Shown here: positions 1,750-49,300 of the stretch, in pieces
Position numbering within the stretch: the stretch's first letter is position 1
Layout: each line of letters opens with the position of its first letter
Assembly (NCBI GenBank): GCA_030390025.1
Contig: CM059432.1
Coordinates: 29,452,001-29,516,000 of the forward strand
Source of the DNA: Squalus acanthias
Taxonomy: Eukaryota
DNA length: 64,000 nt
Reading direction: 5' to 3'
Notes under the pieces: model-generated
The model's input: only the letters and a program-made list of their open reading frames with translations
Database searches by the model: none
Told to the model about the DNA's origin: nothing
Program-made: the position numbers and the translations under genes

Positions 1750-1860
1750 TTTTGTGGTAGGTGTGACCTATACAAAAGGGACGGTCTACACCTGTGCAAA
1801 GATGGAACTGATGTTCTCGGGGTAATTTTTGATAAAGCAGTTCGGGAGCATTTAAACTAG
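1750..1860 (+). pseudogene. C-terminal fragment of CR1 ORF1 (SGNH esterase-like domain)
   Basis: Translates FCGRCDLYKRDGLHLCKDGTDVLGVIFDKAVREHLN*. DGLH is the SGNH DxxH motif typical of vertebrate CR1 ORF1p. Stop TAG at 1858-1860. Confidence 0.85.
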
Positions 1861-1934
1861 TATGGCAGGGGGCTAGAAACCTATGTAGTGAAATAGAGGA
1901 AAGTGAAAGGCAGACAGAAATAAATGGTAAAAGG

Positions 1935-4802
1935 GTGAGGAACAAAAAACAAAGGGCCAAACTAATTCATAAAAAATGTGAGCATAAAAAAAGCCTGAGG
2001 GTTTTATACCTTAATGCGAGAAGCATCAGGAACAAGGTAGATGAATTAGCTGTGGAAATAGAGGTTAATAATTATGATCTAATTGGGATAACGGAAACAT
2101 GGTTGCAGGGTGAGCAGGGCTGGGAGCTTAACATACAGGGGTATTCAGTATTTAGGAAGGATCGACAAAAAAGAAAGGGAGGAGGGGTAGCATTGCTGGT
2201 AAAAGAAGGAATAAATGCAATTGAAAGGAAGGATATTAACTCAGTTAATACAGAATCTATATGGGTGGAGCTAAGAAATAGCGAGGGGCGAAAAACATTA
2301 ATAGGAGTGGTATATAGGCCTCCAAATAGTAAAATAGAGGTTGGGGAGGGCATCACGAGGGAAATTAGAGAAGCGTGCAATAAGAGCACAGCTGTCATCA
2401 TAGGTGACTTTAACTTACATATAGATTGGAATAGCCTAATCAGTAAAAATAATGAGGAGGAGGAATTCCTTGAGTGTTTAAGGGATGGTTATCTGGATCA
2501 ATATGTCGAGGAACCAACTCGGGAACAGGCTATATTGGACTGGGTACTGTGCAATGAGAAGGGACTAATTAGTAATCTTGTTGTACGGGGACCCTTGGGT
2601 CAGAGCGATCATAACATGATCGATTTCTCACTCGAAATGGAGAGCGAAGAAATTGACTCAGATACTAAGGTCCTGAATTTAAACAAGGGGAATTATGATG
2701 CCATTAGACGGGAACTGAGTAGGTCTGATTGGACAACGTTCCTGGGAGGACTGGAGGTAAATAAACAATGGCAAGCATTTAAAGATAGAATGACAAAATT
2801 GAAAAAATTGTTTATACCAATCTGGCATAAAAGGAAATCTAAAAAGGTGACTCAACCGTGGATAACAGGGGAAATTAGAGACAGCATAAAATCCAAAGAT
2901 AGGGCGTATAAAATAGCCAAAAAAAGCGCCAGAGCGGAAGATTGGGAACAGTTTAAGATAGAGCAAAGGAGGACAAAGGGCTTAATCAAGAGGGGCAAAA
3001 TAGCTTACGAAAGCAAGCTGGCGGAAAATATAAAAACTAACTCCAAAAGCTTTTATAAGTATATCAAGAGGAAAAGACTGGTGAAAACCAAAGTTGGCCC
3101 ATTGCAGTCAGATACGGGGGAATATATAACGGGAAATAAGGAAATGGCAGACCAACTAAATGCATACTTTGGGTCAGTCTTTACGAAGGAAGACACAAAA
3201 AACCTCCCTGGGATATCGGGAAAAATAGGGACATTTGCAAAGGAGGAACTGACGCAAATCAATATCTCTAAGGATATGGTGTTAAGGAAGCTAAAGGGAT
3301 TGAAGGCGGACAAATCCCCAGGGCCTGATAACATGCATCCTAGGGTGCTGAAGGAGGTGGCCCTAGAGATAGCGGATGCACTAAGTATGATTTTTCAGAA
3401 TTCATTAGAATCGGGAACAGTGCCCATGGATTGGAGGGTAGCTAACGTTACCCCACTATTCAAAAAGGGGGGTAGGGAAAAAGCAGGTAATTACAGACCT
3501 GTAAGCCTTACATCAGTTGTGGGCAAAATGCTGGAGTCCATCATTAAGGATGAAATAGCGGAGCACTTAGCAAATGGGGACAGGATAGGACAGAGTCAAC
3601 ATGGATTTACAAAGGGTAAATCGTGCTTGACTAATCTATTGGAATTTTTTGAGGGAGTAACTGGTAAAATAGATGGGGGAGAGCCAGTAGATGTGGTGTA
3701 CCTGGACTTCCAAAAGGCCTTCGATAAGGTCCCACATAAAAGATTAGCAGGGAAAATTGAAGCTCATGGGATAAAGGGGAAAGTATTGACGTGGATAGAG
3801 AACTGGCTGTCAGCTAGAAAACAGAGAGTTGGAATAAACGGCTCATTTTCTGAATGGCAGGCAGTAACAAGTGGGGTACCACAGGGATCTGTCCTGGGTC
3901 CCCAGCTGTTCACAATTTACATTAATGACCTGGATCAGGGAGTCGGATGCAGCATTTCCAAATTTGCAGACGACACTAAACTAGGAGGGGGGGTGGGCTC
4001 AGAGGAGGAGACCAGGAAGCTCCAGAGCGATTTGGACAGACTGGGTGATTGGGCGGATAAATGGCAGATGCACTATAATGTGGACAAGTGCGAAGTTATC
4101 CACCTTGGGTGCAGGAACGGGAGGGCAAATTATTATTTAAATGGCAATAAATTGGGAGAGGGGGAAGTACAGAGAGACCTGGGTGTTCTTGTACACCAGT
4201 CACTGAAGGCGAGCATGCAGGTGCAACAGGCGGTCAAGAAGGCAAACGGTATGCTGGCCTTCATAGCAAAAGGGTTGGAATACAGGAACAGGGATACCTT
4301 GCTGCAGCTGTACAGGGCACTGGTGAGACCACACCTCGAGTACTGTGTACAGTTTTGGTCGCCTCATCTGAGGAAAGATGTTCTTGCCATGGAGGGGGTG
4401 CAGCGGCGATTCACCAGGCTGATACCAGGAATGGCGGGATTGACCTATGAGGAGAGACTATGTAGTTTAGGGATGTACACACTGGAGTTTAGAAGATTGA
4501 GAGGGGACCTCATAGAAGTGTATAAAATTCTGACAGGTCTAGACAGACTAGATGCAGAAGGAATGTTTCCCTTGGCGGGTGAGAACAGAACTAGAGGACA
4601 TAATTTAAGGATAAGGGCTAAACCATTTAGGACAGAAATGAGGGGGAATTTCTTCACTCAGAGGATGGTGAACCTGTGGAACTCATTGCCACAGAGGGCA
4701 GTGTACGCCAGCTCATTAAATATATTTAAGAGGGAATTAGATATATTTCTACAGGCAAAAGGGGTTAAGGGTTACGGAGAGAAGGCGGGGACGGGATACT
4801 GA
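1935..4802 (+). CDS. CR1 ORF2: AP endonuclease + reverse transcriptase (frame open from 1836; the track start is a GTG)
   Basis: Uninterrupted 955 aa. APE motifs YLNARS, ITETW, VYRPP, GDFN, SDH. RT motifs KSPGPD, YRPVSLTS, QHGF, YLDFQKAFD, GVPQGSVLGP, FADD. CR1 C-terminal domain RPHLEYCVQFWSP...TRGH...WNSLP. Confidence 0.95.
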   Translation: MRNKKQRAKLIHKKCEHKKSLRVLYLNARSIRNKVDELAVEIEVNNYDLIGITETWLQGEQGWELNIQGYSVFRKDRQKRKGGGVALLVKEGINAIERKDINSVNTESIWVELRNSEGRKTLIGVVYRPPNSKIEVGEGITREIREACNKSTAVIIGDFNLHIDWNSLISKNNEEEEFLECLRDGYLDQYVEEPTREQAILDWVLCNEKGLISNLVVRGPLGQSDHNMIDFSLEMESEEIDSDTKVLNLNKGNYDAIRRELSRSDWTTFLGGLEVNKQWQAFKDRMTKLKKLFIPIWHKRKSKKVTQPWITGEIRDSIKSKDRAYKIAKKSARAEDWEQFKIEQRRTKGLIKRGKIAYESKLAENIKTNSKSFYKYIKRKRLVKTKVGPLQSDTGEYITGNKEMADQLNAYFGSVFTKEDTKNLPGISGKIGTFAKEELTQINISKDMVLRKLKGLKADKSPGPDNMHPRVLKEVALEIADALSMIFQNSLESGTVPMDWRVANVTPLFKKGGREKAGNYRPVSLTSVVGKMLESIIKDEIAEHLANGDRIGQSQHGFTKGKSCLTNLLEFFEGVTGKIDGGEPVDVVYLDFQKAFDKVPHKRLAGKIEAHGIKGKVLTWIENWLSARKQRVGINGSFSEWQAVTSGVPQGSVLGPQLFTIYINDLDQGVGCSISKFADDTKLGGGVGSEEETRKLQSDLDRLGDWADKWQMHYNVDKCEVIHLGCRNGRANYYLNGNKLGEGEVQRDLGVLVHQSLKASMQVQQAVKKANGMLAFIAKGLEYRNRDTLLQLYRALVRPHLEYCVQFWSPHLRKDVLAMEGVQRRFTRLIPGMAGLTYEERLCSLGMYTLEFRRLRGDLIEVYKILTGLDRLDAEGMFPLAGENRTRGHNLRIRAKPFRTEMRGNFFTQRMVNLWNSLPQRAVYASSLNIFKRELDIFLQAKGVKGYGEKAGTGY

Positions 4803-9352: not shown

Positions 9353-10367
9353 GTCAGTCGTGGCTCAGTGGGTAGCACTCTCACCGTGAGTCAGAAAGTT
9401 GTGGGTACAAGTCCCACTCCAGAGACTTCAGCACAAAAATCTAGGCTGGCACTCCGGGAGTACTGAGTACTGAGGGAGTGCTGCATTGTCGGAGGTGCCG
9501 TCTTTCAGATGGGACGTTAAACCGAGGCCCCCTCTGCTCTCTCAGATGGATGTAAAATATCCCTGGGCACTATTTGGAAGAAGAGCAGGGGAATTATCCC
9601 TGGTGTCCTGGCCAATATCTATCCGTCAATCAACATCACACCTGGAGATTTATGTACAGTTTTGGACTCTTTATCTAAGAGGGAGTGCAACAAAGGTTCA
9701 CCAGACTGGTTCCTGAGATGGGGGAATTGTCCTATGAGAAGAGATTGAGTAGACTAGGCCTATATTCTCTGGAGTTTAGAAGAATGAGAGGTGATCTCAT
9801 TGAAACATACAAAACTCTTACAGGGCTTGACAGGGTAGATGCAGGGAGGATGTTTCCCCTGGCTGGGGAGTCTAGAACCAGGGATCACAGTCTCAGAATA
9901 AGGGGTCGGCCATTTAGGACTGAGATGAGGAGAAATTTCTATACACAGAGGGTGGTGAATCTTTGGAATTCTCTACCCCAGAGAGCTGTGGAGGCTCAGT
10001 CGTTGAGTATATTCAAGACAGAGATCGACAGATTTTTATATATTAAGGGAATCAAGGGATATGGGGATAGTGCAGGAAAGTGGAGATGAGGTAGAAGATC
10101 AGCCATGATCTTATTGAATGGCGTAGCAGGCTCAAAGGGCCAAATGGCCTACTGCTGCTCTTATTTCTTATGTTCTTTTGTTCTTAAAACAGATTATTTG
10201 GTCATTATCACAGTGCTGTTTGTGGGAGCTTGCTGTGCACAAATTGGCTGCCACATTTCCTACATTACAACAGTGACTACGCTTCAAAAAGTCCTTCATT
10301 GGCTGTAAAGCACTTTGGGACATCCTGAGGTTGTGAAAGGCGCTATATAAATGCAAGTCTTTCTTTC
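9353..10367 (+). mobile_element. full-length SacSINE1/DeuSINE-like SINE interrupted by a CR1 fragment
   Basis: Head GTGGCTCAGTGGGTAGCACTCTC and body up to ...CAACATCAC (9639). Resumes TAAAACAGATTAT at about 10185 and ends AAGGCGCTATATAAATGCAAGTCTTTCTTTC. Confidence 0.9.
9640..10185 (+). mobile_element. CR1 3' fragment (ORF2 C-terminus + 3' UTR)
   Basis: VQQRFTRLVP...LYSLEFRRMRGDLIE...WNSLPQRAVEA, homologous to the ORF2 end at 4400-4802. CR1 3' UTR and (TTCTTATG)n-type tail. Confidence 0.92.
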
Positions 10368-12214
10368 ATTAGAAGTTTACAAAACAACTACAATTACCTA
10401 TTTCCTGCTTAAAGGGACAGGCCAGGCTAAACACAGGCAGAACTTGATGGCTATTCATTGAAACCATGCTGCCGACTTAACACTACACATGACCAATGCA
10501 ACAAGATAAGTTCTGTTTATTTACTAAAAGTGCTAGAGGCATTAAAATGGTAGAACAGCAAAGTGGCATCCGCAGTTGTTTTTATTATATTAACAGGCTT
10601 TATTATTTGGTCACTATCAATTCAATAAATATATAGATTGTCAACTAGAAACTTCAACACAGAGCTCCGTCTAACATCAGACTGAACACACAGCTCCGTC
10701 TAACACCAGACTGAACACACAGCTCCGTCTAACATCAGACTGAACACACAGCTCCCTCTAACATCAGACTGAACACACAGCTCTCTCTAACACCAGACTG
10801 AACACACAGCTCCGTCTAACACCAGACTGAACACAGAGCTCCCTCTAACACCAGACTGAACACACAGCTCCCTCTAACATCAGACTGAACACACAGCTCC
10901 CTCTAACATCAGACTGAACACACAGCTCTCTCTAACACCAGACTGAACACACAGCTCCCTCTAACACCAGAATGAACACACAGCTCCCTCGAACATCAGA
11001 CTGAACACACAGCTCCCTCTAACACCAGACCAAACACACAGCTCCCTCTAACACCAGACTGAACACACAGCTCCCTCTAACACCAGACCAAACACACAGC
11101 TCCCTCTAACACCAGACTGAACACACAGCTCTCTCTAACATCAGACTGAACACACAGCTCTCTCTAACATCAGACTGAACACACAGCTCCCTCTAACACC
11201 AGACTGAACACACAGCTCCCTCTAACATCAGACTGAACACACAGCTCTCTCTAACACCAGACTGAACACACAGCTCTCTCTAACATCAGACTGAACACAC
11301 AGCTCTCTCTAACATCAGACTGAACACACAGCTCCCTCTAACATCAGACTGAACACACAGCTCCCTCTAACATCAGACTGAACACACAGCTCCCTCTAAC
11401 ACCAGACTGAACACACAGCTCCCTCTAACACCAGACTGAACACACAGCTCCCTCTAACATCAGACTGAACACACAGCTCCCTCTAACATCAGACTGAACA
11501 CACAGCTCCCTCTAACACCAGACTGAACACACAGCTCCCTCTAACACCAGACTGAACACACAGCTCTCTCTAACATCAGACTGAACACACAGCTCCGTCT
11601 AACACCAGACTGAACACACAGCTCCCTCTAACATCAGACTGAACACACAGCTCCTTCTAACACCAGACTGAACACACAGCTCTCTCTAACATCAGACTGA
11701 ACACACAGCTCTCTCTAGCATCAGACTGAACACACAGCTCCCTCTAACACCAGACTGAACACACAGCTCTCTCTAACATCAGACTGAACACACAGCTCCC
11801 TCTAACATCAGACTGAACACACAGCTCCCTCTAACATCAGACTGAACACACAGCTCTCTCTAACATTAGACTGAACACACAGCTCCGTCTAACACCAGAC
11901 TGAACACACAGCTCCCTCTAACATCAGACTGAACACACAGCTCCCTCTAACATCAGACTGAACACACAGCTCCCTCTAACATCAGACTGAACACACAGCT
12001 CCCTCTAACATCAGACTGAACACACAGCTCCCTCTAACACCAGACTGAACACACAGCTCTCTCTAACACCAGACTGAACACACAGCTCCCTCTAACACCA
12101 GACTGAACACACAGCTCCCTCTAACACCAGACTGAACACACAGCTCCCTCTAACATCAGACTGAAATGAGAAGTCGCACAACACCAGGTTATAGTCCAAC
12201 AGATTTATTTAAAA

Positions 12215-12252
12215 TTACAAGCTTTCGGAGCTGTCGCACCTTCGTCAGGTAA
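12215..12252 (-). ncRNA. minimal type I hammerhead ribozyme motif (inverted arm, copy 1)
   Basis: Minus strand: UUAC-CUGACGA-A-GGUGC GACA GCUCC-GAAA-GC-UU-GUAA. Stem I UUAC/GUAA; stem II has one U-U mismatch. Confidence 0.7.
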
Positions 12253-12428
12253 AGGTACAATGAGTGAATCTACAATATTGCACAGTATATAAACACAGAA
12301 ACTGCAGAGATACAATCTTTCAGGGAGGCCTTACATCAAAGACACACCAGAGCACAGCCAAGACAATGAGATGAGTCACAGAGGGTCCAACGTGTCAAAT
12401 CCTGCTGTCTGCAGTTTAACCCTTTTTT

Positions 12429-12941
12429 TTTAAGCAGCCGCCAAACCTCAAAATTACCATCGTTCGCAGCAAATTACCCAGCTGTCAGGAGAACAGCGAC
12501 CACGACACCACACAACCCTGCCACGGCAACCTCTGCAAGACATGCCAGATCATGAACACAGATACCGTCATCACACGTGAGGGCACTACCCACCAGGTAC
12601 ATGGTACATATTCATGTGACTCGGCCAACGTTGTCTACCTGATACGTTGCAGGAAAGGATGCCCCAGAGCATGGTACATCGGCGAGACCATGCAGACACT
12701 GAGACAACGTATGAACGGACACCGCACAACAATCGCCAGGCAGGATTGTTGCCTCCCAGTCGGGGAACACTTCAGCAGTCAAGGACATTCAGCCTCGGAG
12801 CTGCGGGTTAGCGTTCTCCAAGGCGGCCTTCGAGACACATGACAACGCAAAATCATCGAGCAGAAACTGATAGCCAAGTTCCGCACCCATGAGGACGGCC
12901 TCAATAGGGATATCGGGTTCATGTCACGCTACAGAACGTGA
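12429..12941 (+). pseudogene. Penelope linker + GIY-YIG endonuclease with premature stop
   Basis: FKQPPNLK...PCHGNLCKTC...VVYLIRCRKGCPRAWYIGET...RMNGHR. TGA at 12840, after which the frame continues QRKIIEQKLIAKFRTHEDGLNRDIGFMSRYRT*. Confidence 0.9.
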
Positions 12942-13162
12942 CTCGACATCGTTGTCTGTCTTTCCAGTTTTTAAAAAAAACACCAAAAAAAAGGGTTAAA
13001 CTGCAGACAGCAGGATTTGAAACGTTGGACCCCCTGTGACTCATCTCATTGTCTTGGCTGTGCTCTGGTTTGTCTTTGATGTAAGGCCTCCCTGAAAGAT
13101 TGTATCTCTGCAGTTTCTGTGTTTATATACTGTGTAATATTGTAGATTCACTCATTGTACCT

Positions 13163-13200
13163 TCACCTGACGAAGGGGCGACGGCTCCGAAAGCTTGTAA
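13163..13200 (+). ncRNA. minimal type I hammerhead ribozyme motif (direct arm, copy 1)
   Basis: UCAC-CUGACGA-A-GGGGC GACG GCUCC-GAAA-GC-UU-GUAA, with palindromic AAGCUU in place of stem III. Confidence 0.75.
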
Positions 13201-16200
13201 TTTTAAATAAATCTGTTGGACTATAACCTGGTGTTGTGCGACTTCTCATTTTTGTCCACCCCAGTCCAACACCGGCATCTCCGCATCATAACATCAGACT
13301 GAACACACAGCTCCCTCTAACACCAGACTGAACACACAGCTCCCTCTAACATCAGACTGAACACACAGCTCCCTCTAACATCAGACTGAACACACAGCTC
13401 CCTCTAACATCAGACTGAACACACAGCTCCCTCTAACATCAGACTGAACACACAGCTCCCTCTAACATCAGACTGAACACACAGCTCCGTCTAACATCAG
13501 ACTGAACACACAGCTCCCTCTAACACCAGACTGAACACACAGCTCCCTCTAACATCAGACTGAACACACAGCTCCCTCTAACACCAGACTGAACACACAG
13601 CTCCCTCTAACATCAGACTGAACACACAGCTCTCTCTAACATCAGACTGAACACACAGCTCCCTCTAACATCAGACTGAACACACAGCTCCCTCTAACAT
13701 CAGACTGAACACACAGCTCCCTCTAACATCAGACTGAACACACAGCTCCCTCTAACATCAGACTGAACACACAGCTCCCTCTAACATCAGACTGAACACA
13801 CAGCTCCCTCTAACACCAGACTGAACACACAGCTCCCTCTAACATCAGACTGAACACACAGCTCCCTCTAACACCAGACTGAACACACAGCTCCCTCTAA
13901 CATCAGACTGAACACACAGCTCCCTCTAACACCAGACTGAACACACAGCTCCCTCTAACATCAGACTGAACACACAGCTCCCTCTAACACCAGACTGAAC
14001 ACACAGCTCCCTCTAACACCAGACTAACACACAGCTCCCTCTAACACCAGACTGAACACACAGCTCCCTCTAACACCAGACTGAACACACAGCTCCCTCT
14101 AACACCAGACTGAACACACAGCTCCCTCTAACATCAGACTGAACACACAGCTCCCTCTAACACCAGACTGAACACACAGCTCCCTCTAACATCAGACTGA
14201 ACACACAGCTCCCTCTAACATCAGACTGAACACACAGCTCTCTCTAACATCAGACTGAACACACAGCTCTCTCTAACATCAGACTGAACACACAGCTCTC
14301 TCTAACACCAGACCAAACACACAGCTCCCTCTAACATCAGACTGAACACACAGCTCCTCTAACATCAGACTGAACACACAGCTCCCTCTAACATCAGACT
14401 GAACACACAGCTCTCTCTAACACCAGACTGAACACACAGCTCTCTCTAACACCAGACTGAACACACAGCTCCCTCTAACACCAGACTGAACACACAGCTC
14501 CCTCTAACATCAGACTGAACACACAGCTCCCTCTAACATCAGACTGAACACACAGCTCCCTCTAACATCAGACTGAACACACAGCTCCCTCTAACATCAG
14601 ACTGAACACACAGCTCTCTCTAACATCAGACTGAACACACAGCCCCTCTAACACCAGACTGAACACACAGCTCCGTCTAACATCAGACTGAACACACAGC
14701 TCCCTCTAACACCAGACTGAACACACAGCTCCCTCTAACATCAGACTGAACAGACAGCTCCCTCTAACACCAGACTGAACACACAGCTCCCTCTAACATC
14801 AGACTGAACACACAGCTCCCTCTAACACCAGACTGAACACACAGCTCTCTCTAACATCAGACTGAACACACAGCTCCCTCTAACACCAGACTGAACACAC
14901 AGCTCTCTCTAACATCAGACTGAACACACAGCTCTCTCTAACATCAGACTGAACACACAGCTCTCTCTAACATCAGACTGAACACACAGCTCCCTCTAAC
15001 ACCAGACTGAACACACAGCTCCCTCTAACATCAGACTGAACACACAGCTCTCTCTAACACCAGACTGAACACACAGCTCTCTCTAACATCAGACTGAACA
15101 CACAGCTCCCTCTAACACCAGACTGAACACACAGCTCCCTCTAACATCAGACTGAACACACAGCTCTCTCTAACATCAGACTGAACACACAGCTCCATCT
15201 AACATCAGACTGAACACACAGCTCCCTCTAACACCAGACTGAACACACAGCTCCCTCTAACACCAGACTGAACACACAGCTCCCTCTAACATCAGACTGA
15301 ACACACAGCTCCCTCTAACATCAGACTGAACACACAGCTCCCTCTAACACCAGACTGAACACACAGCTCCCTCTAACACCAGACTGAACACACAGCTCCC
15401 TCTAACACCAGACTGAACACACAGCTCCCTCTAACATCAGACTGAACACACAGCTCCCTCTAACACCAGACTGAACACACAGCTCCCTCTAACATCAGAC
15501 TGAACACACAGCTCCCTCTAACATCAGACTGAACACACAGCTCCCTCTAACACCAGACTGAACACACAGCTCCCTCTAACACCAGACTGAACACACAGCT
15601 CCCTCTAACATCAGACTGAACACACAGCTCCCTCTAACATCAGACTGAACACACAGCTCCCTCTAACATCAGACTGAACACACAGCTCTCTCTAACATCA
15701 GACTGAACACACAGCTCCTCTAACATCAGACTGAACACACAGCTCCCTCTAACACCAGACTGAACACACAGCTCCCTCTAACACCAGACTGAACACACAG
15801 CTCCCTCTAACACCAGACTGAACACACAGCTCCCTCTAACATCAGACTGAACACACAGCTCCCTCTAACACCAGACTGAACACACAGCTCCCTCTAACAT
15901 CAGACTAAACACACAGCTCCCTCTAACATCAGACTGAACACACAGCTCCCTCTAACACCAGACTGAACACACAGCTCCCTCTAACACCAGACTGAACACA
16001 CAGCTCCCTCTAACATCAGACTGAACACACAGCTCCCTCTAACATCAGACTAAACACACAGCTCCCTCTAACATCAGACTGAACACACAGCTCTCTCTAA
16101 CATCAGACTGAACACACAGCTCTCTCTAACATCAGACTGAACGCACAGCTCCCTCTAACATCAGACTGAACACACAGCTCCCTCTAACATCAGACTAAAC

Positions 16201-18886
16201 ACACAGCTCCCTCTAACATCAGACTGAACACACAGCTCTCTCTAACATCAGACTGAACACACAGCTCCCTCTAACATCAGACTGAACACACAGCTCCCTC
16301 TAACATCAGACTGAACACACAGCTCTCTCTAACACCAGACTGAACACACAGCTCCCTCTAACATCAGACTGAACACACAGCTCTCTCTAACACCAGACTG
16401 AACACACAGCTCTCTCTAACATCAGACTGAACACACAGCTCCCTCTAACACCAGACTGAACACACAGCTCCCTCTAACATCAGACTGAACACACAGCTCT
16501 CTCTAACATCAGACTGAACACACAGCTCCATCTAACATCAGACTGAACACACAGCTCCCTCTAACACCAGACTGAACACACAGCTCCCTCTAACACCAGA
16601 CTGAACACACAGCTCCCTCTAACATCAGACTGAACACACAGCTCCCTCTAACATCAGACTAAACACACAGCTCCCTCTAACACCAGACTGAACACACAGC
16701 TCCCTCTAACACCAGACTGAACACACAGCTCCCTCTAACACCAGACTGAACACACAGCTCCCTCTAACATCAGACTGAACACACAGCTCCCTCTAACACC
16801 AGACTGAACACACAGCTCCCTCTAACATCAGACTAAACACACAGCTCCCTCTAACATCAGACTGAACACACAGCTCCCTCTAACACCAGACTGAACACAC
16901 AGCTCCCTCTAACATCAGACTGAACACACAGCTCCCTCTAACATCAGACTAAACACACAGCTCCCTCTAACATCAGACTGAACACACAGCTCTCTCTAAC
17001 ATCAGACTGAACACACAGCTCTCTCTAACATCAGACTGAACACACAGCTCCCTCTAACACCAGACTGAACACACAGCTCCCTCTAACATCAGACTGAACA
17101 CACAGCTCCCTCTAACACCAGACTGAACACACAGCTCCCTCTAACATCAGACTGAACACACAGCTCCCTCTAACACCAGACTGAACACACAGCTCCCTCT
17201 AACATCAGACTGAACACACAGCTCCCTCTAACATCAGACTGAACACACAGCTCCCTCTAACACCAGACTGAACACACAGCTCCCTCTAACACCAGACTGA
17301 ACACACAGCTCCCTCTAACATCAGACTGAACACACAGCTCCCTCTAACATCAGACTGAACACACAGCTCCCTCTAACATCAGACTGAACACACAGCTCTC
17401 TCTAACATCAGACTGAACACACAGCTCCTCTAACATCAGACTGAACACACAGCTCCCTCTAACATCAGACTGAACACACAGCTCCCTCTAACATCAGACT
17501 GAACACACAGCTCCCTCTAACATCAGACTGAACACACAGCTCTCTCTAACATCAGACTGAACACACAGCTCCCTCTAACATCAGACTGAACACACAGCTC
17601 CCTCTAACATCAGACTGAACACACAGCTCTCTCTAACACCAGACTGAACACACAGCTCCCTCTAACACCAGACTGAACACACAGCTCCCTCTAACATCAG
17701 ACTGAACACACAGCTCCCTCTAACACCAGACAGAACACACAGCTCCCTCTAACACCAGACTGAACACACAGCTCCCTCTAACACCAGACCTAACACACAG
17801 CTCCCTCTAACACCAGACTGAACACACAGCTCTCTCTAACATCAGACTGAACACACAGCTCCCTCTAACATCAGACTGAACACACAGCTCCCTCTAACAC
17901 CAGACTGAACACACAGCTCCCTCTAACATCAGACTGAACACACAGCTCTCTCTAACACCAGACTGAACACACAGCTCTCTCTAACATCAGACTGAACACA
18001 CAGCTCTCTCTAACATCAGACTGAACACACAGCTCCCTCTAACATCAGACTGAACACACAGCTCCCTCTAACATCAGACTGAACACACAGCTCCCTCTAA
18101 CACCAGACTGAACACACAGCTCCCTCTAACACCAGACTGAACACACAGCTCCCTCTAACATCAGACTGAACACACAGCTCCCTCTAACATCAGACTGAAC
18201 ACACAGCTCCCTCTAACACCAGACTGAACACACAGCTCCCTCTAACACCAGACTGAACACACAGCTCTCTCTAACATCAGACTGAACACACAGCTCCGTC
18301 TAACACCAGACTGAACACACAGCTCCCTCTAACATCAGACTGAACACACAGCTCCTTCTAACACCAGACTGAACACACAGCTCTCTCTAACATCAGACTG
18401 AACACACAGCTCTCTCTAGCATCAGACTGAACACACAGCTCCGTCTAACACCAGACTGAACACACAGCTCTCTCTAACATCAGACTGAACACACAGCTCC
18501 CTCTAACATCAGACTGAACACACAGCTCCCTCTAACATCAGACTGAACACACAGCTCTCTCTAACATTAGACTGAACACACAGCTCCGTCTAACACCAGA
18601 CTGAACACACAGCTCCCTCTAACATCAGACTGAACACACAGCTCCCTCTAACATCAGACTGAACACACAGCTCCCTCTAACATCAGACTGAACACACAGC
18701 TCCCTCTAACACCAGACTGAACACACAGCTCCCTCTAACACCAGACTGAACACACAGCTCCCTCTAACACCAGACTGAACACATAGCTCCCTCTAACACC
18801 AGACTGAACACACAGCTCCCTCTAACATCAGACTGAAATGAGAAGTCGCACAACACCAGGTTATAGTCCAACAGATTTATTTAAAA

Positions 18887-18924
18887 TTACAAGCTTTCGG
18901 AGCTGTCGCACCTTCGTCAGGTAA
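18887..18924 (-). ncRNA. minimal hammerhead motif (inverted arm, copy 2)
   Basis: Identical to 12215-12252. Confidence 0.7.
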
Positions 18925-19100
18925 AGGTACAATGAGTGAATCTACAATATTGCACAGTATATAAACACAGAAACTGCAGAGATACAATCTTTCAGGGAGG
19001 CCTTACATCAAAGACGCACCAGAGCACAGCCAAGACAATGAGATGAGTCACAGAGGGTCCAACGTGTCAAATCCTGCTGTCTGCAGTTTAACCCTTTTTT

Positions 19101-19613
19101 TTTAAGCAGCCGCCAAACCTCAAAATTACCATCGTTCGCAGCAAATTACCCAGCTGTCAGGAGAACAGCGACCACGACACCACACAACCCTGCCACGGCA
19201 ACCTCTGCAAGACATGCCAGATCATGAACACAGATACCGTCATCACACGTGAGGGCACTACCCACCAGGTACATGGTACATATTCATGTGACTCGGCCAA
19301 CGTTGTCTACCTGATACGTTGCAGGAAAGGATGCCCCAGAGCATGGTACATCGGCGAGACCATGCAGACACTGAGACAACGTATGAACGGACACCGCACA
19401 ACAATCGCCAGGCAGGATTGTTGCCTCCCAGTCGGGGAACACTTCAGCAGTCAAGGACATTCAGCCTCGGAGCTGCGGGTTAGCGTTCTCCAAGGCGGCC
19501 TTCGAGACACATGACAACGCAAAATCATCGAGCAGAAACTGATAGCCAAGTTCCGCACCCATGAGGACGGCCTCAATAGGGATATCGGGTTCATGTCACG
19601 CTACAGAACGTGA
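19101..19613 (+). pseudogene. Penelope linker + GIY-YIG endonuclease with premature stop, copy 2
   Basis: Same translation as 12429-12941, including the TGA at 19512. Confidence 0.9.
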
Positions 19614-19834
19614 CTCGACATCGTTGTCTGTCTTTCCAGTTTTTAAAAAAAACACCAAAAAAAAGGGTTAAACTGCAGACAGCAGGATTTGAAACGTTGG
19701 ACCCCCTGTGACTCATCTCATTGTCTTGGCTGTGCTCTGGTTTGTCTTTGATGTAAGGCCTCCCTGAAAGATTGTATCTCTGCAGTTTCTGTGTTTATAT
19801 ACTGTGTAATATTGTAGATTCACTCATTGTACCT

Positions 19835-19872
19835 TCACCTGACGAAGGGGCGACGGCTCCGAAAGCTTGTAA
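19835..19872 (+). ncRNA. minimal hammerhead motif (direct arm, copy 2)
   Basis: Identical to 13163-13200. Confidence 0.75.
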
Positions 19873-22800
19873 TTTTAAATAAATCTGTTGGACTATAACC
19901 TGGTGTTGTGCGACTTCTCATTTTTGTCCACCCCAGTCCAACACCGGCATCTCCGCATCATAACATCAGACTGAACACACAGCTCCCTCTAACACCAGAC
20001 TGAACACACAGCTCCCTCTAACATCAGACTGAACACACAGCTCCCTCTAACATCAGACTGAACACACAGCTCCCTCTAACATCAGACTGAACACACAGCT
20101 CCCTCTAACATCAGACTGAACACACAGCTCCCTCTAACATCAGACTGAACACACAGCTCCGTCTAACATCAGACTGAACACACAGCTCCCTCTAACACCA
20201 GACTGAACACACAGCTCCCTCTAACATCAGACTGAACACACAGCTCCCTCTAACACCAGACTGAACACACAGCTCCCTCTAACATCAGACTGAACACACA
20301 GCTCCGTCTAACATCAGACTGAACACACAGCTCCCTCTAACATCAGACTGAACACACAGCTCCCTCTAACATCAGACTGAACACACAGCTCCTCTAACAT
20401 CAGACTGAACACACAGCTCCTCTAACATCAGACTGAACACACAGCTCCTCTAACATCAGACTGAACACACAGCTCCCTCTAACACCAGACTGAACACACA
20501 GCTCCCTCTAACATCAGACTGAACACACAGCTCCCTCTAACACCAGACTGAACACACAGCTCCCTCTAACATCAGACTGAACACACAGCTCCCTCTAACA
20601 CCAGACTGAACACACAGCTCCCTCTAACATCAGACTGAACACACAGCTCCCTCTAACACCAGACTGAACACACAGCTCCCTCTAACACCAGACTGAACAC
20701 ACAGCTCCCTCTAACACCAGACTGAACACACAGCTCCCTCTAACACCAGACTGAACACACAGCTCCCTCTAACACCAGACTGAACACACAGCTCCCTCTA
20801 ACATCAGACTGAACACACAGCTCCCTCTAACACCAGACTGAACACACAGCTCCCTCTAACATCAGACTGAACACACAGCTCCCTCTAACATCAGACTGAA
20901 CACACAGCTCTCTCTAACATCAGACTGAACACACAGCTCTCTCTAACATCAGACTGAACACACAGCTCTCTCTAACACCAGACTGAACACACAGCTCCCT
21001 CTAACATCAGACTGAACACACAGCTCTCTCTAACATCAGACTGAACACACAGATCTCTCTAACATCAGACTGAACACACAGCTCTCTCTAACACCAGACT
21101 GAACACACAGCTCTCTCTAACACCAGACTGAACACACAGCTCCCTCTAACACCAGACTGAACACACAGCTCCCTCTAACATCAGACTGAACACACAGCTC
21201 CCTCTAACATCAGACTGAACACACAGCTCCCTCTAACATCAGACTGAACACACAGCTCCCTCTAACATCAGACTGAACACACAGCTCTCTCTAACATCAG
21301 ACTGAACACACAGCTCCCTCTAACACCAGACTGAACACACAGCTCCGTCTAACATCAGACTGAACACACAGCTCCCTCTAACACCAGACTGAACACACAG
21401 CTCCCTCTAACATCAGACTGAACAGACAGCTCCCTCTAACACCAGACTGAACACACAGCTCCCTCTAACATCAGACTGAACACACAGCTCCCTCTAACAC
21501 CAGACTGAACACACAGCTCTCTCTAACATCAGACTGAACACACAGCTCCCTCTAACACCAGACTGAACACACAGCTCTCTCTAACATCAGACTGAACACA
21601 CAGCTCTCTCTAACATCAGACTGAAAACACAGCTCTCTCTAACATCAGACTGAACACACAGCCCCCTCTAACACCAGACTGAACACACAGCTCCCTCTAA
21701 CATCAGATTGAACACACAGCTCTCTCTAACACCAGACTGAACACACAGCTCTCTCTAACATCAGACTGAACACACAGCCCCCTCTAACACCAGACTGAAC
21801 ACACAGCTCCCTCTAACATCAGACTGAACACACAGCTCTCTCTAACATCAGACTGAACACAAAGCTCAATCTAACATCAGACTGAACACACAGCTCCCTC
21901 TAACACCAGACTGAACACACAGCTCCCTCTAACACCAGACTGAACACACAGCTCCCTCTAACATCAGACTGAACACACAGCTCCCTCTAACATCAGACTA
22001 AACACACAGCTCCCTCTAACACCAGACTGAACACACAGCTCCCTCTAACACCAGACTGAACACACAGCTCCCTCTAACACCAGACTGAACACACAGCTCC
22101 CTCTAACATCAGACTGAACACACAGCTCCCTCTAACACCAGACTGAACACACAGCTCCCTCTAACATCAGACTAAACACACAGCTCCCTCTAACATCAGA
22201 CTGAACACACAGCTCCCTCTAACACCAGACTGAACACACAGCTCCCTCTAACACCAGACTGAACACACAGCTCCCTCTAACATCAGACTGAACACACAGC
22301 TCCCTCTAACATCAGACTAAACACACAGCTCCCTCTAACATCAGACTGAACACACAGCTCTCTCTAACATCAGACTGAACACACAGCTCTCTCTAACATC
22401 AGACTGAACACACAGCTCTCTCTAACATCAGACTGAACACACAGCTCCCTCTAACACCAGACTGAACACACAGCTCCCTCTAACATCAGACTGAACACAC
22501 AGCTCTCTCTAACACCAGACTGAACACACAGCTCTCTCTAACATCAGACTGAACACACAGCTCCCTCTAACACCAGACTGAACACACAGCTCCCTCTAAC
22601 ATCAGACTGAACACACAGCTCTCTCTAACATCAGACTGAACACACAGCTCAATCTAACATCAGACTGAACACACAGCTCCCTCTAACACCAGACTGAACA
22701 CACAGCTCCCTCTAACATCAGACTGAACACACAGCTCCCTCTAACACCAGACTGAACACACAGCTCCCTCTAACATCAGACTGAACACACAGCTCCCTCT

Positions 22801-24674
22801 AACACCAGACTGAACACACAGCTCCCTCTAACATCAGACTAAACACACAGCTCCCTCTAACATCAGACTGAACACACAGCTCCCTCTAACACCAGACTGA
22901 ACACACAGCTCCCTCTAACATCAGACTAAACACACAGCTCCCTCTAACATCAGACTGAACACACAGCTCTCTCTAACATCAGACTGAACACACAGCTCTC
23001 TCTAACATCAGACTGAACGCACAGCTCTCTCTAACATCAGACTGAACACACAGCTCTGTCTAACACCAGACTGAACACACAGCTCCCTCTAACATCAGAC
23101 TGAACACACAGCTCCCTCTAACATCAGACTGAACACACAGCTCCCTCTAACATCAGACTGAACACACAGCTCTCTCTCACACCAGACTGAACACACAGCT
23201 CCCTCTCACATCAGACTGAACACACAGCTCCCTCTAACACCAGACTGAACACACAGCTCTCTCTAACACCAGACTGAACACACAGCTCCCTCTAACACCA
23301 GACTGAACACACAGCTCCCTCTAACACCAGACTGAACACACAGCTCCGTCTAACATCCGACTGAACACACAGCTCCCTCTAACATCAGACTGAACACACA
23401 GCTCCCTCTAACATCAGACTGAACACACAGCTCCCTCTAACATCAGACTGAACACACAGCTCCCTCTAACATCAGACTGAACACACAGCTCCCTCTAACA
23501 TCAGAGTGAACACACAGCTCCGTCTAACACCAGACTGAACACACAGCTCCCTCTAACATCAGACTGAACACACAGCTCCCTCTAACATCAGACTGAACAC
23601 ACAGCTCCCTCTAACATCAGACTGAACACACAGCTCCCTCTAACATCAGACTGAACACACAGCTCCCTCTAACACCAGACTGAACACACAGCTCTCTCTA
23701 ACACCAGACTGAACACACAGCTCCCTCTAACACCAGACTAAACACACAGCTCTCTCTAACATCAGACTAAACACATAGCTCTCTCTAACATCAGCACTGA
23801 CGGCCAACTCCTTCACCCCCAGCCGATCAATGCTGTTAAGAGTACAACAATCTCAGCAGGCTGGCAAGATAATACACTGAACACTCTCTTCTTTTCTTTC
23901 TTGCGCACCATGCGCACCAGCGCACAGTTCACCACCTTAAAGCAAACCCCGTACAGCTATCCCTACTCAGAACAATAGCACATGCCAGGCCTCTGGCCTT
24001 CGCCCACAGAGCATCATGCCAGTGGAATGTTTGAGATGTTACCAGGCTGTCAGGGTCAAGCTCCCGATATGTAGCCAGCAATTATTCTATACCAGGAGCA
24101 AGCCGCCTTGAGATGGGTCCACCTCAGTCCCATGGCCCTTTTGTAGAAAATGTGCAGCTAACCACCTCCCATGATACGAACCCTTGGTTTGCACCTAGGA
24201 GAAGCACTAAAATAGAAATGCACGTGTGGGCACAGGGGAAGCATGGTATTAGGAAAGAATAGATTGGCTTGTGTACACTTTGGACTTCAGTGTATTAAAA
24301 TAGAATATGCACTGACATCACACTTTGTTAATCATGAAGGCTAGAATCACACAGGAAAGAGTGCACTTTTGTGATGCTGATGCCTTCACTTAGCTGATGA
24401 TTATTGTCATGCTCATGTAGGAGCAAAGACACCTGCTGTTGTACGGATGGCTAGTAGATTGTGGGAATGTCCCTTTATTGAAAAGTGGGGAAGAAGGAGG
24501 CAAGGCTCTGATTTCAAAGGTAGACTATGTTACACAGAAGGTAAGACCTCAGTGATGAGACATGCTCTGATGTCCTTTGCAGCAGTCACTGAAGATTCCT
24601 CTGAGTTCAAGTCATCATGACTACATCTCTATGTAGTTCTGGCTCCAATAGAGCAGGGCTTCATCACCAGCAAT

Positions 24675-25120
24675 CATAAGGTTGTGAAGGGCACAGCAGG
24701 CAAAAGCTATGCATGACACACAATCTGGAGCTTACTGCAATGTCCCCCATGACCTGTGGAGGCAACAAAAACATGCCTTTAATACACCCTATTGGTCTTC
24801 TCGATGTCCAGTCTTGTAGGAGCATATAGCTTATGTTTTCGCTTCTCTGCTGCTGTTCAGGCCACTCTTACTGGAGTCATTATCCATGGGAGCAGGTGGT
24901 AGGTTTTGTCACCCAGAAGCCATCCACTGATGTGATCATCTTCCCAGCAGAGTTCAGGGAGAGTCATATATCGCAGTATGAAGGGATCATAACAACCTCA
25001 CACAAATCTGTGCAATGAGGGAATGGAAGCCCTTCCTATTCATGTCGGTGAGGGTGTGTTCTGTGGGAGTATCCAAAGCAACTTGGGTGCTATAGAATGC
25101 ACCCTAGCTCTTGGTAGTGG
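24675..25120 (-). pseudogene. decayed PIF/Harbinger (HARBI1-like DDE) transposase
   Basis: The minus strand, across frameshifts, gives GAFYSTQVALDTP (cf. GAIDCTHV), NRKGFHSL, LLGDKTYHLLPWIMTP, TRLDIEKT..G.LK..F, and CLHRSWGTLQ*AP..V..I..ACCALHN, all in canonical order. Confidence 0.85.
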
Positions 25121-25203
25121 GCTCCTCTACCTCCATAGTGTCCCCAGAAATGTACCTGCTGAAGGCTTTGGTCCAGGACAAAACTGCCAGTCTGGGCCTG
25201 TGA

Positions 25204-27563
25204 CAGGTGGTGAGAGAACCAACACGAGGAAAAACCTACTTAACCTCGTCCTCACCAATCTACCTGTCGCAGATGCATCTGTCCATGACAGTATTGGCAG
25301 CAGTGACCACTGCACAGTCATTGTGGAGACGAAGTCCCTTCTTCACACTGAGGACACCCTCCATCGTGTTGTGTGGCACTACCACCGTGCTAAATGGGAT
25401 AGATTCAGAACAGATCTAGCAGCTCAAAACTGGGCATCCATGAGGCGCTGTGGGCCATCAGCATCAGCAGAATTGTATTCCACCACAATCTGTAACCTCA
25501 TGGCCTGGCATATCCCTCACTCTACCATTACCATCAAGCCAGGGGACCAACCCTGGTTCAATAAGGAGTGTAGAAGAGCATGCCAGGAGCAGCACCAGGC
25601 GTACATAAAAATGAGGTGCCAACCTGGGGAAGCTGCAACACAGGACTATATGCATGCTAAAAAGCGGAAGGAGCATGCTATAGACAGGGCTAAGCGATCC
25701 CACAATCAACGGATCAGATCAAAGCTCTGCAGTCCTGCCACATCCAGTCGTGAATGGTGGTGGACCATTAAACAACTAACAGGAGGAGGAGGCTCCATGA
25801 ATATTCCCATCCTCAATGATGGAGGAGCCCAGCACGTGAGTGCAAAAGACAAAGCTGAAGTATTTGCAACCATCTTCAGCCAGAAGTGCCGAGTGGATGA
25901 TCCATATCGGCCTCCTCCTGTGGTCCCCACCATCACAGAAGCCAGTCTTCAGCCAATTCGATTCACTCCACGTGATATCAAGAAACGGCTCAGCGCATTG
26001 GATACAGCAAAGTCTATGGGCCCCGACAACATCCTGGCTATCGTGCTGAAGACTTGTGCTTCAGAACTAGCCGCGTCTCTACCAAGCTGTTCCAGTACAG
26101 CTACAACACTGGCATCTATCCGATAATGTGGAAAACTGCCCAGGTATGTCCTGTCCACAAAAAGCAGGACAAATCCAATCCGGCCAGTTACCGCCCCATC
26201 AGTCTACTCTCAATCATCAGCAAAGTGATGGAAGGTGTCATCAACAGTGCTATCAAGTAGGCACTTACGCACCAATAACCTGCACACTGATGCCCAGTTT
26301 GGGTTCCGCCAAGACCACTCGGCTCCCGACCTCATTACAGCCTTGGGCCAAACATTAACAAAGGAGCTGAATTCCAGAGGTGAGGTGAGAGTGACTGCCC
26401 TTGACATCAAGGCAGCATTTGACCGAGTGTGGCATCGAGGAGCCCTAGTAAAACTGAAGTCAATGGGAATCGGGGGGTAAAACTCTCCACTGGCTGGAGC
26501 CATCCCTAGCACAAAGGAAGATGGTTGTGGTGATTGAAAGTCAATCATCACAGCCCCAGGACATCGCTGCAGGAGTTCCTCAGGGCAGTGACCTAGGCCC
26601 AACCATCTTCAGCTGCTTCATCAATGACCTTCCCTCCAACATAAGGTCAGAAATGGGAATATTCGCTGATGATTGCACAGTGTTCAGTGCCATTCACAAC
26701 TCCTCAGATAATGAAGCAGTCTATGCCCGCATGCAACAAGACCTGGACGACGTTCAAGCTTGGGCTGATAAGTGGCAGGTAACATTCGCGCCACACAAGT
26801 GCCAGGCAATGACTATCTCCAACAAGCGAGAGTCTAACCACCGCCCTTTGACATTCAATGGCATTACCATCGCCGAATCCCCCACCATCAACATCCTGTG
26901 GGTCACCATTGACCAGAAACTTAACTGGACCAGCCACATAAATACTGTGGCAACAAGAGCAGGTCAGAGGCTAGGTATTCTGCGGCGAGTGTCTCACCTC
27001 CTGAATCCTCAAAGCCTTTCTACCATCTACAAGGCACAAGTAAGGGGCGTGATGGAATACTCTCCACTTGCCTGGGTGAGTGCAGCCCCAACAACACTCA
27101 AGAAGCTCGACACCATCCAGGACAAAGCAGCCCGCTTGATTTGCACCCTATCCACCACCTTAAACATTCACTCCCTCCAGCACCGACGTACCATGGCTGC
27201 AGTGTGTACCATCTACAAGATGCACTGCAGCAATTCGCCAAGGCTTCTTCGGCAGCACCTCCCAAACCCGCGACCTCTTCCACCTAGAAGGACAAGGGCA
27301 GCAGAGGCATGGGAACACCACCACCTCCAAGTTCCCCTCCAAGTCACACACCATCCTGACTTAGAACTATATCTCCGATCCTTCATCGTCGCTGGGTCAA
27401 AATCCTGGAACTCCCTCCCTAACAGCACTGTGGGAGTACCTTCACCACACGGACTGCAGCGGTTCAAGAAGGCGGCTCACCACCACCTTCTCAAGTGCAA
27501 TTAGGGATGGGCAATAAATGCTGGCCTTGCCAGCGACGCCCACATCCCATAAAAACGAATAAA
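25204..27563 (+). mobile_element. 5'-truncated, frameshifted CR1/L2-group LINE (family distinct from the HER1-like element)
   Basis: EPTRG, SDH, QPWF, KSMGPD, YRPISLLS, QFGFR, LDIKAAFDRVWH, GVPQGS, FADD and WNSLP are spread over several frames with stops. 3' UTR hairpin GGGATGGGC..GCTGGC-CTT-GCCAGC..GCCCACATCCC and an A-rich tail. Confidence 0.92.
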
Positions 27564-46300: not shown

Positions 46301-49300
46301 CTCTCCATTATCCTCAGTGTAACACACTGCCAGCTCTCTATTATCCAGTGTAACACACTGCCAGCTCTCTATTATCCTCAATGTAACACACTGCCAGCTC
46401 TCCATTATCCTCAGTGTAACACACTGCCAGCGCTCTATTATCCAGTGTAACACACTGCCAGCTCTCTATTATCCTCAGTGTAACACACTGGCTGCTCTCT
46501 ATTATCCTCAGTGTAACACACTGCCAGCTCTCTATTATCCAGTGTAACACACTGCCAGCTCTCTATTATCCTCAGTGTAACACAGTGCCAGCTGTCTATT
46601 ATCCTGAGTGTAACACCCTGCCAGCTGTCTATTATCCTCAGTGTAATACACTGCCAGCTCTCTATTATCCTCAGTGCAACACCCTGCCAGCTCTCTATTA
46701 TCCAGTGTAAAACACTGCCAGCTCTCTATTATCCTCAGTGCAACACACTGGCAGCTCTCTATTATCCTCAGTGTAACACACTGTCTGCTCTCTATTAACC
46801 TCAGTTTAACACACTGCCAGCTCTCTATTATCCTCAGTGTAACACATTGCCAGCTCATTATTATCCTCAGTGTAACACACTGCCAGCTCTCTATTATCCT
46901 CAGTGTAAAACACTGCCAGCTCTCTATTATCCTCAGTATAACACAGTGCCAGCTCTCTATTATCCAGTGTAACACACTGCCAGCTCTCTATTATCCTCAG
47001 TGAAACACACTGCCAGCTCTCTATTATCCTCAGTGTAACACACCGCCAGTCCTCTACTATCCTCAGTGTAACACACTGCCAGCTCTCTATTATCCTCAGT
47101 GTAACACACCGCCAGCCCTCTATTATCCTCAGTGTAACACACTTCCAGCTCTCTATTATCCTCAGTGTAACACACTGCCAGCTCTCTATTATCCTCAGTG
47201 TAACACACCGCCAGCCCTCTATTATCCTCAGTGTAACACACTGCCAGCTCTCTATTATCCTCAGTGTAACACACTGCCAGCTCTCTATTATCCTCAGTGT
47301 AACATACTGCCAGCTCTCTATTATCCTCAGTGTAACACACTGCCAGCTTTCTATTATCCTCAGTGTAACATACTGCCAGCTCTCTATTACATTCAGTGTA
47401 ACACACTGCCAGCTCATAGAAACATAGAAACATAGAAAATAGGTACAGGAGTAGACCATTCGGTCCTTCGAGCCTGCACCGCCATTCAATGCGTTCATGG
47501 CTGAACATGTTACCTCAGTACCCCATTCCTGCTTTCTCGCCATACCCCTTGATCCCTTTAGTTGTGAGTGTTATATCTAACTCCCTTTTGAATATATTTA
47601 GTGAACTGGCCTCAACAACCTTCTGTAGAAGAGAATTCCATAGATTCACCACTCTCTGGGTGAAGAAGTTCCTCCTCAGCTCAGTCCTAAATGGCTTCCC
47701 CTTAATCCTCAGACTGTGACCCCTGGTTCTAGTTTTCCCTACCATTGGGAACATTCTGCCCGCATCTAATTTGTCTAAACCAGTCAGGATTTTAAATGTC
47801 CCTATAAGATCCCCCCTCATTCTTCTGAACTCCAGAGGATACAAGTTCAGTTGACCCAATCTTTCTTGATATGTCAGTCCGGCCATCCCAGGAATCAATC
47901 TAGTGAACCTTCGCTGCACTCCCTCAATAGCAAGAATGTCCTTCCTTAAGTTAGGAGACCAAAACTGCGCACAATACTCCAGCTGTGGCTCTCTATTATC
48001 CTCAGTGCAACACCCTGCCAGCTCTCTATTATCCAGTGTAAAACACTGCCTGCTCTCTATTATCCTCAGTGCAACACACTGCCAGCTCTCTATTATCCTC
48101 AGTGTAACACACTGTCTGCTCTCTATTATCCTCAGTTTAACACACTGCCAGCTCTCTATTATCCTCAGTGTAACACATTGCCAGCTCACTATTATCCTCA
48201 GTGTAACACACTGCCAGCTCTCTATTATCCTCAGTGTAACACACTGCCAGCTCTCTATTATCCTCAGTGTAACACACTGCCAGCTCTCTATTATCCTCAG
48301 TGTAACACACCGCCAGTCCTCTATTATCCTTAGTGTAACACACTGCCAGCTCTCTACTATCCTCAGTGTAACACACCGCCAGCCCTCTATTATCCTCAGT
48401 GTAACACACTGCCAGCTCTCTATTATCCTCAGTGTAACACACTGCCAGCTCTCTATTATCCTCAGTGTAACACACCGCCAGCCGTCTATTATCCTCAGTG
48501 TAACACACTGCCAGCTCTCTATTATCCTCAGTGTAACACACTGCCAGCTCTCTATTATCCTCAGTGTAACACACCGCCAGTCCTCTATTATCCTTAGTGT
48601 AACACACTGCCAGCTCTCTATTATCCTCAGTGTAACACACCGCCAGCCCTCTATTATCCTCAGTGTAACACACTGCCAGCTCTCTATTATCCTCAGTGTA
48701 ACACACTGCCAGCTCTCTATTATCCTCAGTGTAACACACCGCCAGCCGTCTATTATCCTCAGTGTAACACACTGCCAGCTCTCTATTATCCTCAGTGTAA
48801 CACACTGCCAGCTCTCTATTATCCTCAGTGTAACACACTGCCAGCTCTCTGTTATCCTCAGTGTAACACACTGTCAGCTCTCTATTATCCTCAGTGTAAC
48901 ACACTGCCAGCCCTCTGTTATCCACAGTGTAACAAACTGCAAGCTCACGATTATCCAGTGTAACACACAGCCAGCTCTCTATTATCCTCAGTGTTACACA
49001 CTGCCAGCTCTCTATTATCCTCAGTGTTACACACTGCCAGCTCTCTGTTATCCAGTATAACATACTGCCACCTCTCTATTATCCTCAGTGTAACACACTG
49101 CCAGCTCTCTATTATCCTCAGTGTAACACACTGCCAGCTCTCTATTATCCTCAGTGTAACACATTGCCAGCTCTCTATTATCCTCAGTGTAACACACTGC
49201 CAGCTCTCTATTATCCAGTGCAACACACTGTCAGCTCTCTATTATCCTCAGTGTAACACACTGCCAGCTCTATATTATCCTCAGTGTAACACACTGCAAG

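Follow-up and report, generated by a model that had tools for sequence, protein, structure and literature searches.

A 5′-truncated Penelope-like element in fold-back shape, with hammerhead motifs in both arms, within a satellite array of Squalus acanthias

Anatomy of the element, its insertion site and its duplication

A stretch of 64,000 nucleotides of the Squalus acanthias genome (GCA_030390025.1, contig CM059432.1, positions 29,452,001 to 29,516,000), termed the window, contains an array of a 29-bp satellite at 10656-23800 that is interrupted at 12166-13289. The interruption was confirmed to be a 5′-truncated Penelope-like element (PLE), probably of the Neptune clade, inserted in a fold-back shape such that a pseudo-long terminal repeat (pLTR) is present in inverted and direct copies around the 3′ end of an open reading frame (ORF). 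The features of the locus, including sequences resembling a target site duplication (TSD), are as follows.

10656-23800, no strand: host 29-bp satellite array (repeat analysis)
12151-12165, plus: left copy of a 14- to 15-bp TSD-like sequence (junction comparison)
12166-12430, minus: inverted 5′-truncated pLTR without tail, pointing outward (arm comparison)
12215-12252, minus: minimal hammerhead of the left arm, predicted cut 12219/12218
12263-12291, minus: TATA-like TATATA and initiator-like TCACT, forming a putative promoter that points out of the left arm (arm identity)
12431-12941, plus: 3′ end of a Neptune PLE ORF, with a CX4CxxC linker and a GIY-YIG domain (VVY..YIG) with CCHH
12985-13250, plus: direct pLTR, part matching the left arm (arm comparison)
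13124-13152, plus: TATATA (13124-13129) with TCACT (13148-13152), forming a putative promoter immediately 5′ of the hammerhead
13163-13200, plus: minimal hammerhead of the right arm, predicted cut 13196/13197
13214-13234, plus: motif conserved in the relative L001 (20/21 letters) that can pair with the tail (comparison with L001)
13251-13289, plus: PLE tail of ~39 nt, present at the right end only, family 3′ terminus (arm comparison, contig ends)
13290-13303, plus: right copy of the TSD-like sequence (junction comparison)
18838-19961, no strand: the entire element in a second copy (one difference across 1,125 bp, identical junctions, offset of 6,672)

An earlier reading made from the letters of the window (the sequence-only reading) had described a fold-back Penelope element with arms of ~265 bp around a GIY-YIG fragment. 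The arms (12166-12430 and 12985-13249) were indeed 265 bp long and 97.4% complementary, with 7 differences, and enclosed the GIY-YIG end of a PLE; the arms, the endonuclease (EN) and a 39-nt tail bore out the PLE identity and the inverted pLTR with tail, and the right end of the element, previously placed at 13288, was corrected to 13289. The arrangement of inverted plus direct pLTR with a tail of 30 to 40 nt, found here in full, is typical of PLEs, in which an inverted 5′-truncated copy accompanies such a tail (PMC8557442, PMC3846280; published work is cited throughout from the parts of each source consulted). The dinucleotide AA at 12164-12165 was common to the left TSD-like copy and the element end, and in a 29-bp satellite a target duplication of 14 to 15 bp is indistinguishable from a target deletion of 14 to 15 bp.

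The spacer encoded 168 aa with 88% identity to the C terminus of P0002, a reverse transcriptase (RT)-bearing protein of the shark Heptranchias, and a homologue search with this fragment detected 64 homologues, with sharks on top and identities of no more than 89%, which by itself points to a cartilaginous fish as the host. The fragment contained the linker CHGNLCKTC followed by VVY-LIRC..C..WYIG plus two histidines, i.e., a C-terminal GIY-YIG EN with CCHH, as in EN-positive PLEs. A profile of the fragment family matched T4 endonuclease II (E = 0.0019), and the Pfam GIY-YIG family (PF01541) was matched by 4 of 19 aligned homologues. The CX2-5CxxC linker of the Neptune clade was present and the C-terminal EN excluded Naiad. 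A linker of this type upstream of the EN is found in Neptune, Nematis and Naiad, its combination with CCHH motifs has been described for Neptune/Nematis PLEs (PMC8557442), and vertebrate PLEs are reported to be Neptune or Poseidon (bioRxiv 10.64898/2026.07.22.740005); the linker and EN motifs thereby suggest the label Neptune. While P0002, the closest homologue with an RT, has this domain (PF00078) upstream of the region, the RT is absent from the truncated copy at 12166-13289, and the copy is, therefore, dead.

Abundance and variation of the family were examined by comparing the region 12370-13310 with Logan contigs of 4 of 20 sequencing runs. The contigs of RNA runs were unverified and informative on the presence of the family only, not on strand, start or level; the variants referred to are the 40 listed of 78. 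A DNA run (X1) yielded 15,903 matching contigs, indicative of a very abundant family, with maximal depth at 13202-13265. As 124 X1 contigs ended their match at 13289 with mixed flanks, this position was taken to be the 3′ end of the family and the extra 39 nt to be the PLE tail. Other strand-switch joints were detected in one contig each (12637/12758 in X1 and 13184/13254 in X7) and point to further fold-back copies. A premature stop at 12840-12842 was private to this copy, with another letter in 99% of the X1 depth. Among the variants listed, private changes were similarly frequent in the EN (5/510) and the right arm (2/266), as expected for neutral decay.

The second copy of the element, which the sequence-only reading had not mentioned, differed from the first at one position. 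The strings of satellite units flanking the two copies were alignable and yet different at many units, a pattern that fits a recent duplication of ~6.7 kb; unequal exchange may thus have duplicated the element together with the surrounding satellite. An artifactual duplication in the assembly would account for a single difference across ~1.5 kb within a satellite, but we consider it rather unlikely, as one single-nucleotide difference lies inside the element and many positions distinguish the unit strings past the first 11 units, which can nonetheless be aligned.

Hammerhead motifs in the arms and in distant relatives

Both arms contained a string consisting of stem I, CUGACGA, A, a G..C-bounded stem II, GAAA, GCUU, the cut site and GUAA. 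From CUGACGA to GUAA, this string spans 13167-13200 on the plus strand and 12248-12215 on the minus strand, in agreement with the core that the sequence-only reading had placed in each arm; the cut it had predicted after GAAAGCUU corresponds to 13196/13197. Cores are present on both strands because the pLTR is inverted. In the right arm, stem I (UCAC/GUAA) had a C-A mismatch, the core at 13167-13173 was followed by an extra A (13174), a 5-bp stem II with one G-U pair (13175-13188) and GAAA (13189-13192). In the left arm, stem I (UUAC/GUAA) was paired at 4/4 positions and stem II had a U-U mismatch. All core nucleotides were intact in both arms, and each of the sequence characteristics of a minimal type I hammerhead was found: CUGANGA plus GAAA core, U16.1-H17, G10.1-C11.1, an extra nucleotide and palindromic 15.2-16.2. 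The palindrome AAGCUU, previously described as a reduced stem III, was likewise present; we take helix III of a dimer to comprise only AGCU (15.1-16.1), with the outer A and U being core positions 14 and 17. Minimal hammerheads of PLEs have been described with an extra nucleotide before G10.1-C11.1, a palindromic 15.2-16.2 and no helix III (PMC4209133).

A simple core pattern matched the window 12 times (0.04 expected). Eight of these matches were satellite variants, rejected for having no stem II, and the other four were copies of one sequence. In the family, the stem I pair was variable, with T at 13164 in 42 to 60% of the depth and G at 13199 in 12 to 78%, and the hammerhead core was hit by none of the variants listed.

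Four loci were obtained as candidate relatives by a protein scan, of which L001 (57% aa identity) and L002 (43% aa identity) were those with enough 3′ sequence. Both (2/2) had a minimal hammerhead ~280 nt past the stop codon, matched for each by 0 of 5,000 shuffles with a descriptor that had been widened after the G3-C8 core of L002 was known. Stem I differed between these loci and the window, with all versions pairing (ACAC/GUGU in L001 and ACCCA/UGGGU in L002 versus UUAC/GUAA). The L002 hammerhead (1779-1816, with stem I ACCCA/UGGGU) had a reversed core pair, G3-C8 (GUGACCA), and as such is the naturally occurring equivalent of the C3G/G8C rescue mutant of PMC11167929. Head-to-head inversion junctions were present inside the ORF of both L001 (3-185, 166-702) and L002 (1-150, 130-1494).

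The remaining loci were L003, rejected as spurious with 18 aa matched, and L124, which ended ~30 nt past the stop codon and was uninformative for a hammerhead. The latter (NZ_MPRK01000347.1) is a Neptune PLE fragment with 61% identity to P0002 in the assembly of a bacterial symbiont and is probably contamination by host DNA. A scan of viral proteins confirmed none of 33 candidates, and scans with DNA motifs of metagenome and prokaryote collections gave no matches. A loose DNA pattern matched 120 viral stretches, two of which passed the core filter and represented one chance match; a tighter pattern matched once, without hammerhead or PLE similarity.

Fate of read-through RNA and origin of the insertion

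Folding of the whole element was predicted to yield a hairpin of 265 bp at −644.5 kcal/mol, in which uninterrupted pairing extends over stretches of 66 and 64 bp. The sequence-only reading had proposed that read-through RNA could either form such a hairpin or self-cleave, and that the hairpin would compete with ribozyme folding. The hairpin and the competition were supported by the predictions, and self-cleavage was not: the probability of stems I and II in full transcripts was 0.0000 for both strands. When an arm was folded without the other arm, the stem probabilities were still no more than 0.11 (right) and 0.001 (left), due to a competing local helix, in comparison to >0.98 for L001. As the arms point outward, the antisense arm precedes the sense core in transcripts of either strand, and, as one element supplies one sense core per transcript, there is no partner for a dimer in cis. 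These predictions suggest that the sense core of read-through RNA would be trapped, uncleaved, in a hairpin, and that satellite transcripts running through the element are unlikely to cut themselves. For a core to be free, the RNA would have to start within the pLTR, and even then a partner in trans or the protein of the element would be needed.

Putative promoters for such RNA are present in each arm, where TCACT lies 18 nt after TATATA and 15 nt before the core. A TATA box (TATATAAA) was detected at a similar distance, ~39 nt upstream of the core, in L001. The same TATA/TCACT layout has been described for rotifer pLTRs (PMC3846280), and the promoter of Penelope in Drosophila virilis is internal and TATA-less (PMC2377424). 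Convergent putative pLTR promoters flank the satellite that separates copies 1 and 2 of the element (13290-18837), and firing of both would produce transcripts running toward each other through these 5.5 kb.

Very probably, the insertion was dead on arrival and derives from an abundant Neptune-clade PLE of sharks, and its inherited hammerheads would be trapped by the hairpin in read-through RNA. Combining the anatomy with the mechanism published for this class, the RT/GIY-YIG protein of an active element would have nicked the satellite and copied its own RNA from two neighboring starts. The first cDNA would have been initiated at the tail end (13289) and extended across the pLTR into the EN, while the second, with its start ~39 nt inward at 13250, would have reached a length of only 265 nt; head-to-head joining of these two 5′-truncated cDNAs would have followed. 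The insertion would then have decayed neutrally before unequal exchange duplicated it with ~6.7 kb of satellite. We infer that the hammerheads are the inherited minimal type I ribozyme of the pLTR, under selection in the active family but not at the present insertion. In an Anolis PLE, the hammerhead needs the protein of the element and is dispensable for insertion in vitro, and RNA-seq detected no ends where it would cut (PMC11167929).

A number of observations weigh against this explanation. Comparison with Rfam, the check that the sequence-only reading had put forward, detected no hammerhead family (e.g., RF00163) in the window up to E = 10, the only matches being chance matches to snR67, mir-4859 and ArcZ, and none in L001 and L002 up to E = 5. 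A relaxed descriptor matched 14 of 200 Markov shuffles of the 19.3 kb of non-satellite DNA in the window. Because of the Rfam result and these shuffle matches, the hammerhead motif alone is weak evidence, and it is position and conservation in relatives that carry the case. A covariation count among three sequences found one both-sided change and did not beat the shuffles (338/500), and the variants at 13164 and 13199 were both present in the family only as unlinked counts. A Pfam search with the 140-aa window fragment gave no match. None of the contigs listed spanned the junction at 12430/12431. Finally, the folds are equilibrium predictions, and the two-start-site mechanism has been shown only for a Poseidon element (PMC11167929).

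An alternative is that the locus is an active source of double-stranded RNA (dsRNA), with the hairpin or convergent pLTR transcription feeding small interfering RNA (siRNA) or ADAR pathways and silencing the satellite and the PLE. A precedent exists in transgenic Drosophila, where rearranged Penelope copies also have long inverted repeats and inferred dsRNA, and where siRNAs were mapped to the inverted parts (PMC3681739). The stability of the hairpin, the TATA/TCACT layout of both arms, the TATA box of L001 and the convergent orientation of the right arm of copy 1 and the left arm of copy 2 are all consistent with such a role. No excess of A>G/T>C changes was observed, however, in the contigs of a run taken to be RNA (X7, 7/11) relative to those of the DNA run (X1, 6/13), a comparison at the level of the family; moreover, the divergence of the arms looks neutral in rate and satellite DNA is usually heterochromatic. 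Activity of this kind at the locus is thus unlikely. That the hammerheads cut satellite read-through RNA here is highly improbable: the core nucleotides are intact in both arms and stem I of the left arm is fully paired over 4 bp, but the sense core always follows its antisense copy, the stems have a predicted probability of 0.0000 in the presence of the other arm and of no more than 0.11 in its absence, each arm has a stem mismatch, there is no dimer partner in cis, published minimal hammerheads show no activity as monomers (PMC4209133) and that of Anolis is protein dependent, with no RNA ends at its cut (PMC11167929).

Three other explanations of the element at 12166-13289 were rejected. A DNA transposon or miniature inverted-repeat transposable element was ruled out, there being no transposase, arms that are pLTRs and a spacer that is a PLE EN; a non-LTR retrozyme requires at least two direct tandem hammerhead units, whereas these cores are inverted and cores on the same strand are 6,672 bp apart; and selection for ribozymes on two strands was discarded. 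With the trapped, dead-on-arrival insertion as the preferred explanation, fold-back geometry has a general consequence: such insertions are predicted to silence their own ribozyme and to be sources of dsRNA rather than sites of cleavage.

Relation to known systems and minor observations

The element is ordinary, a further decayed member of a very abundant family with the textbook arrangement of a PLE. Published descriptions of the class already include the inverted pLTR, the tail and the minimal hammerhead, as well as siRNA derived from inverted repeats of Penelope. A close likeness is to Pen2a/Pen2 of the rotifer Adineta vaga (PMC3846280, PMC8557442), which share a 5′-truncated copy, inverted head-to-head pLTRs, a TSD, a 30- to 40-nt tail at one end and a TATA ~20 bp before TCACT. 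The shark element differs in belonging to Neptune, in having no palindrome at the inner junction, in its TSD-like sequences of 14 to 15 bp as opposed to 8 to 10 bp and in its target, a 29-bp satellite in which the insertion was later duplicated. The minimal hammerheads of metazoan pLTRs resemble those described here in being type I with an extra nucleotide, a short helix I and no helix III, and pairs located 100 to 700 bp apart on opposite strands have been reported (Cervera & De la Peña 2014, PMC4209133); the shark cores are ~920 bp apart, with one stem mismatch each. Sharks are not named among the organisms in the portion of the text consulted, and the supplements may list the family. The Anolis element PAc, of the Poseidon clade (Frangieh et al. 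2024, PMC11167929), likewise has a hammerhead in the pLTR upstream, and its tail has been attributed to RT starting at two neighboring sites of a stem-loop. It differs in belonging to a clade without the CX2-5CxxC linker, in being intact and assayed and in having an ORF that starts at the hammerhead, whereas a start of the ORF was not found in the shark element. Non-LTR retrozymes, reported in one chondrichthyan, also have PLE-derived type I hammerheads near tandem repeats (bioRxiv 10.64898/2026.07.22.740005), but as direct tandem hammerhead units; the shark cores lie in inverted orientation and bear no relation to the satellite unit. A shark-specific description of the element family was not found in the literature covered, which did not extend to the supplements of PMC4209133 and of the preprint.

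A possible second RNA structure was detected at the end of the pLTR. Positions 13214-13222 pair with the tail at 13263-13271 in both the window and L001 (1028-1085), where the helix differs by two one-sided changes from U-A to U-G; the fold z-scores of this region were −1.5 for the window and −3.15 for L001. A second short helix (13228-13234/13269-13275), read by eye, would with the first form a candidate H-type pseudoknot, and the paired region covers exactly both insertion ends, 13250 and 13289. We tentatively suggest, with considerable doubt, that the Neptune lineage keeps this putative pseudoknot as a signal for RT starts at these two positions. Counting against it are a sample of two with one-sided changes only and L002, in which the 13214-13234 motif was not found. 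If correct, the telomerase-related RT acting on this structure would start at two sites and build both tails and fold-back insertions. No description of pairing between the pLTR end and the tail was found in the literature covered (supplements and subscription papers lay outside it); the pairing is a testable candidate for the initiation signal of Neptune RT, the PLE protein assayed in the published work consulted being that of a Poseidon element.

The rest of the window contains a 33-bp satellite (31374-64000) that appears by eye to be related to the 29-bp satellite (10656-23800), with CAGCTC..CTA..TCAG..AACAC in common. Its unit reads CTGAGGA-TAATA-GAGAGCT on the minus strand, and eight variant units match the hammerhead core pattern without a stem II. 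Within this array, an insertion of ~570 bp (47416-47987) presumably represents the 3′ end of a CR1/L2-type long interspersed nuclear element (LINE) on the minus strand. An intact ORF of 988 aa at 1836-4802 (plus strand), with APE-like and RT motifs, resembles by eye ORF2 of a CR1-type LINE, and further LINE fragments are present at 9679-10089 and 24993-27504.

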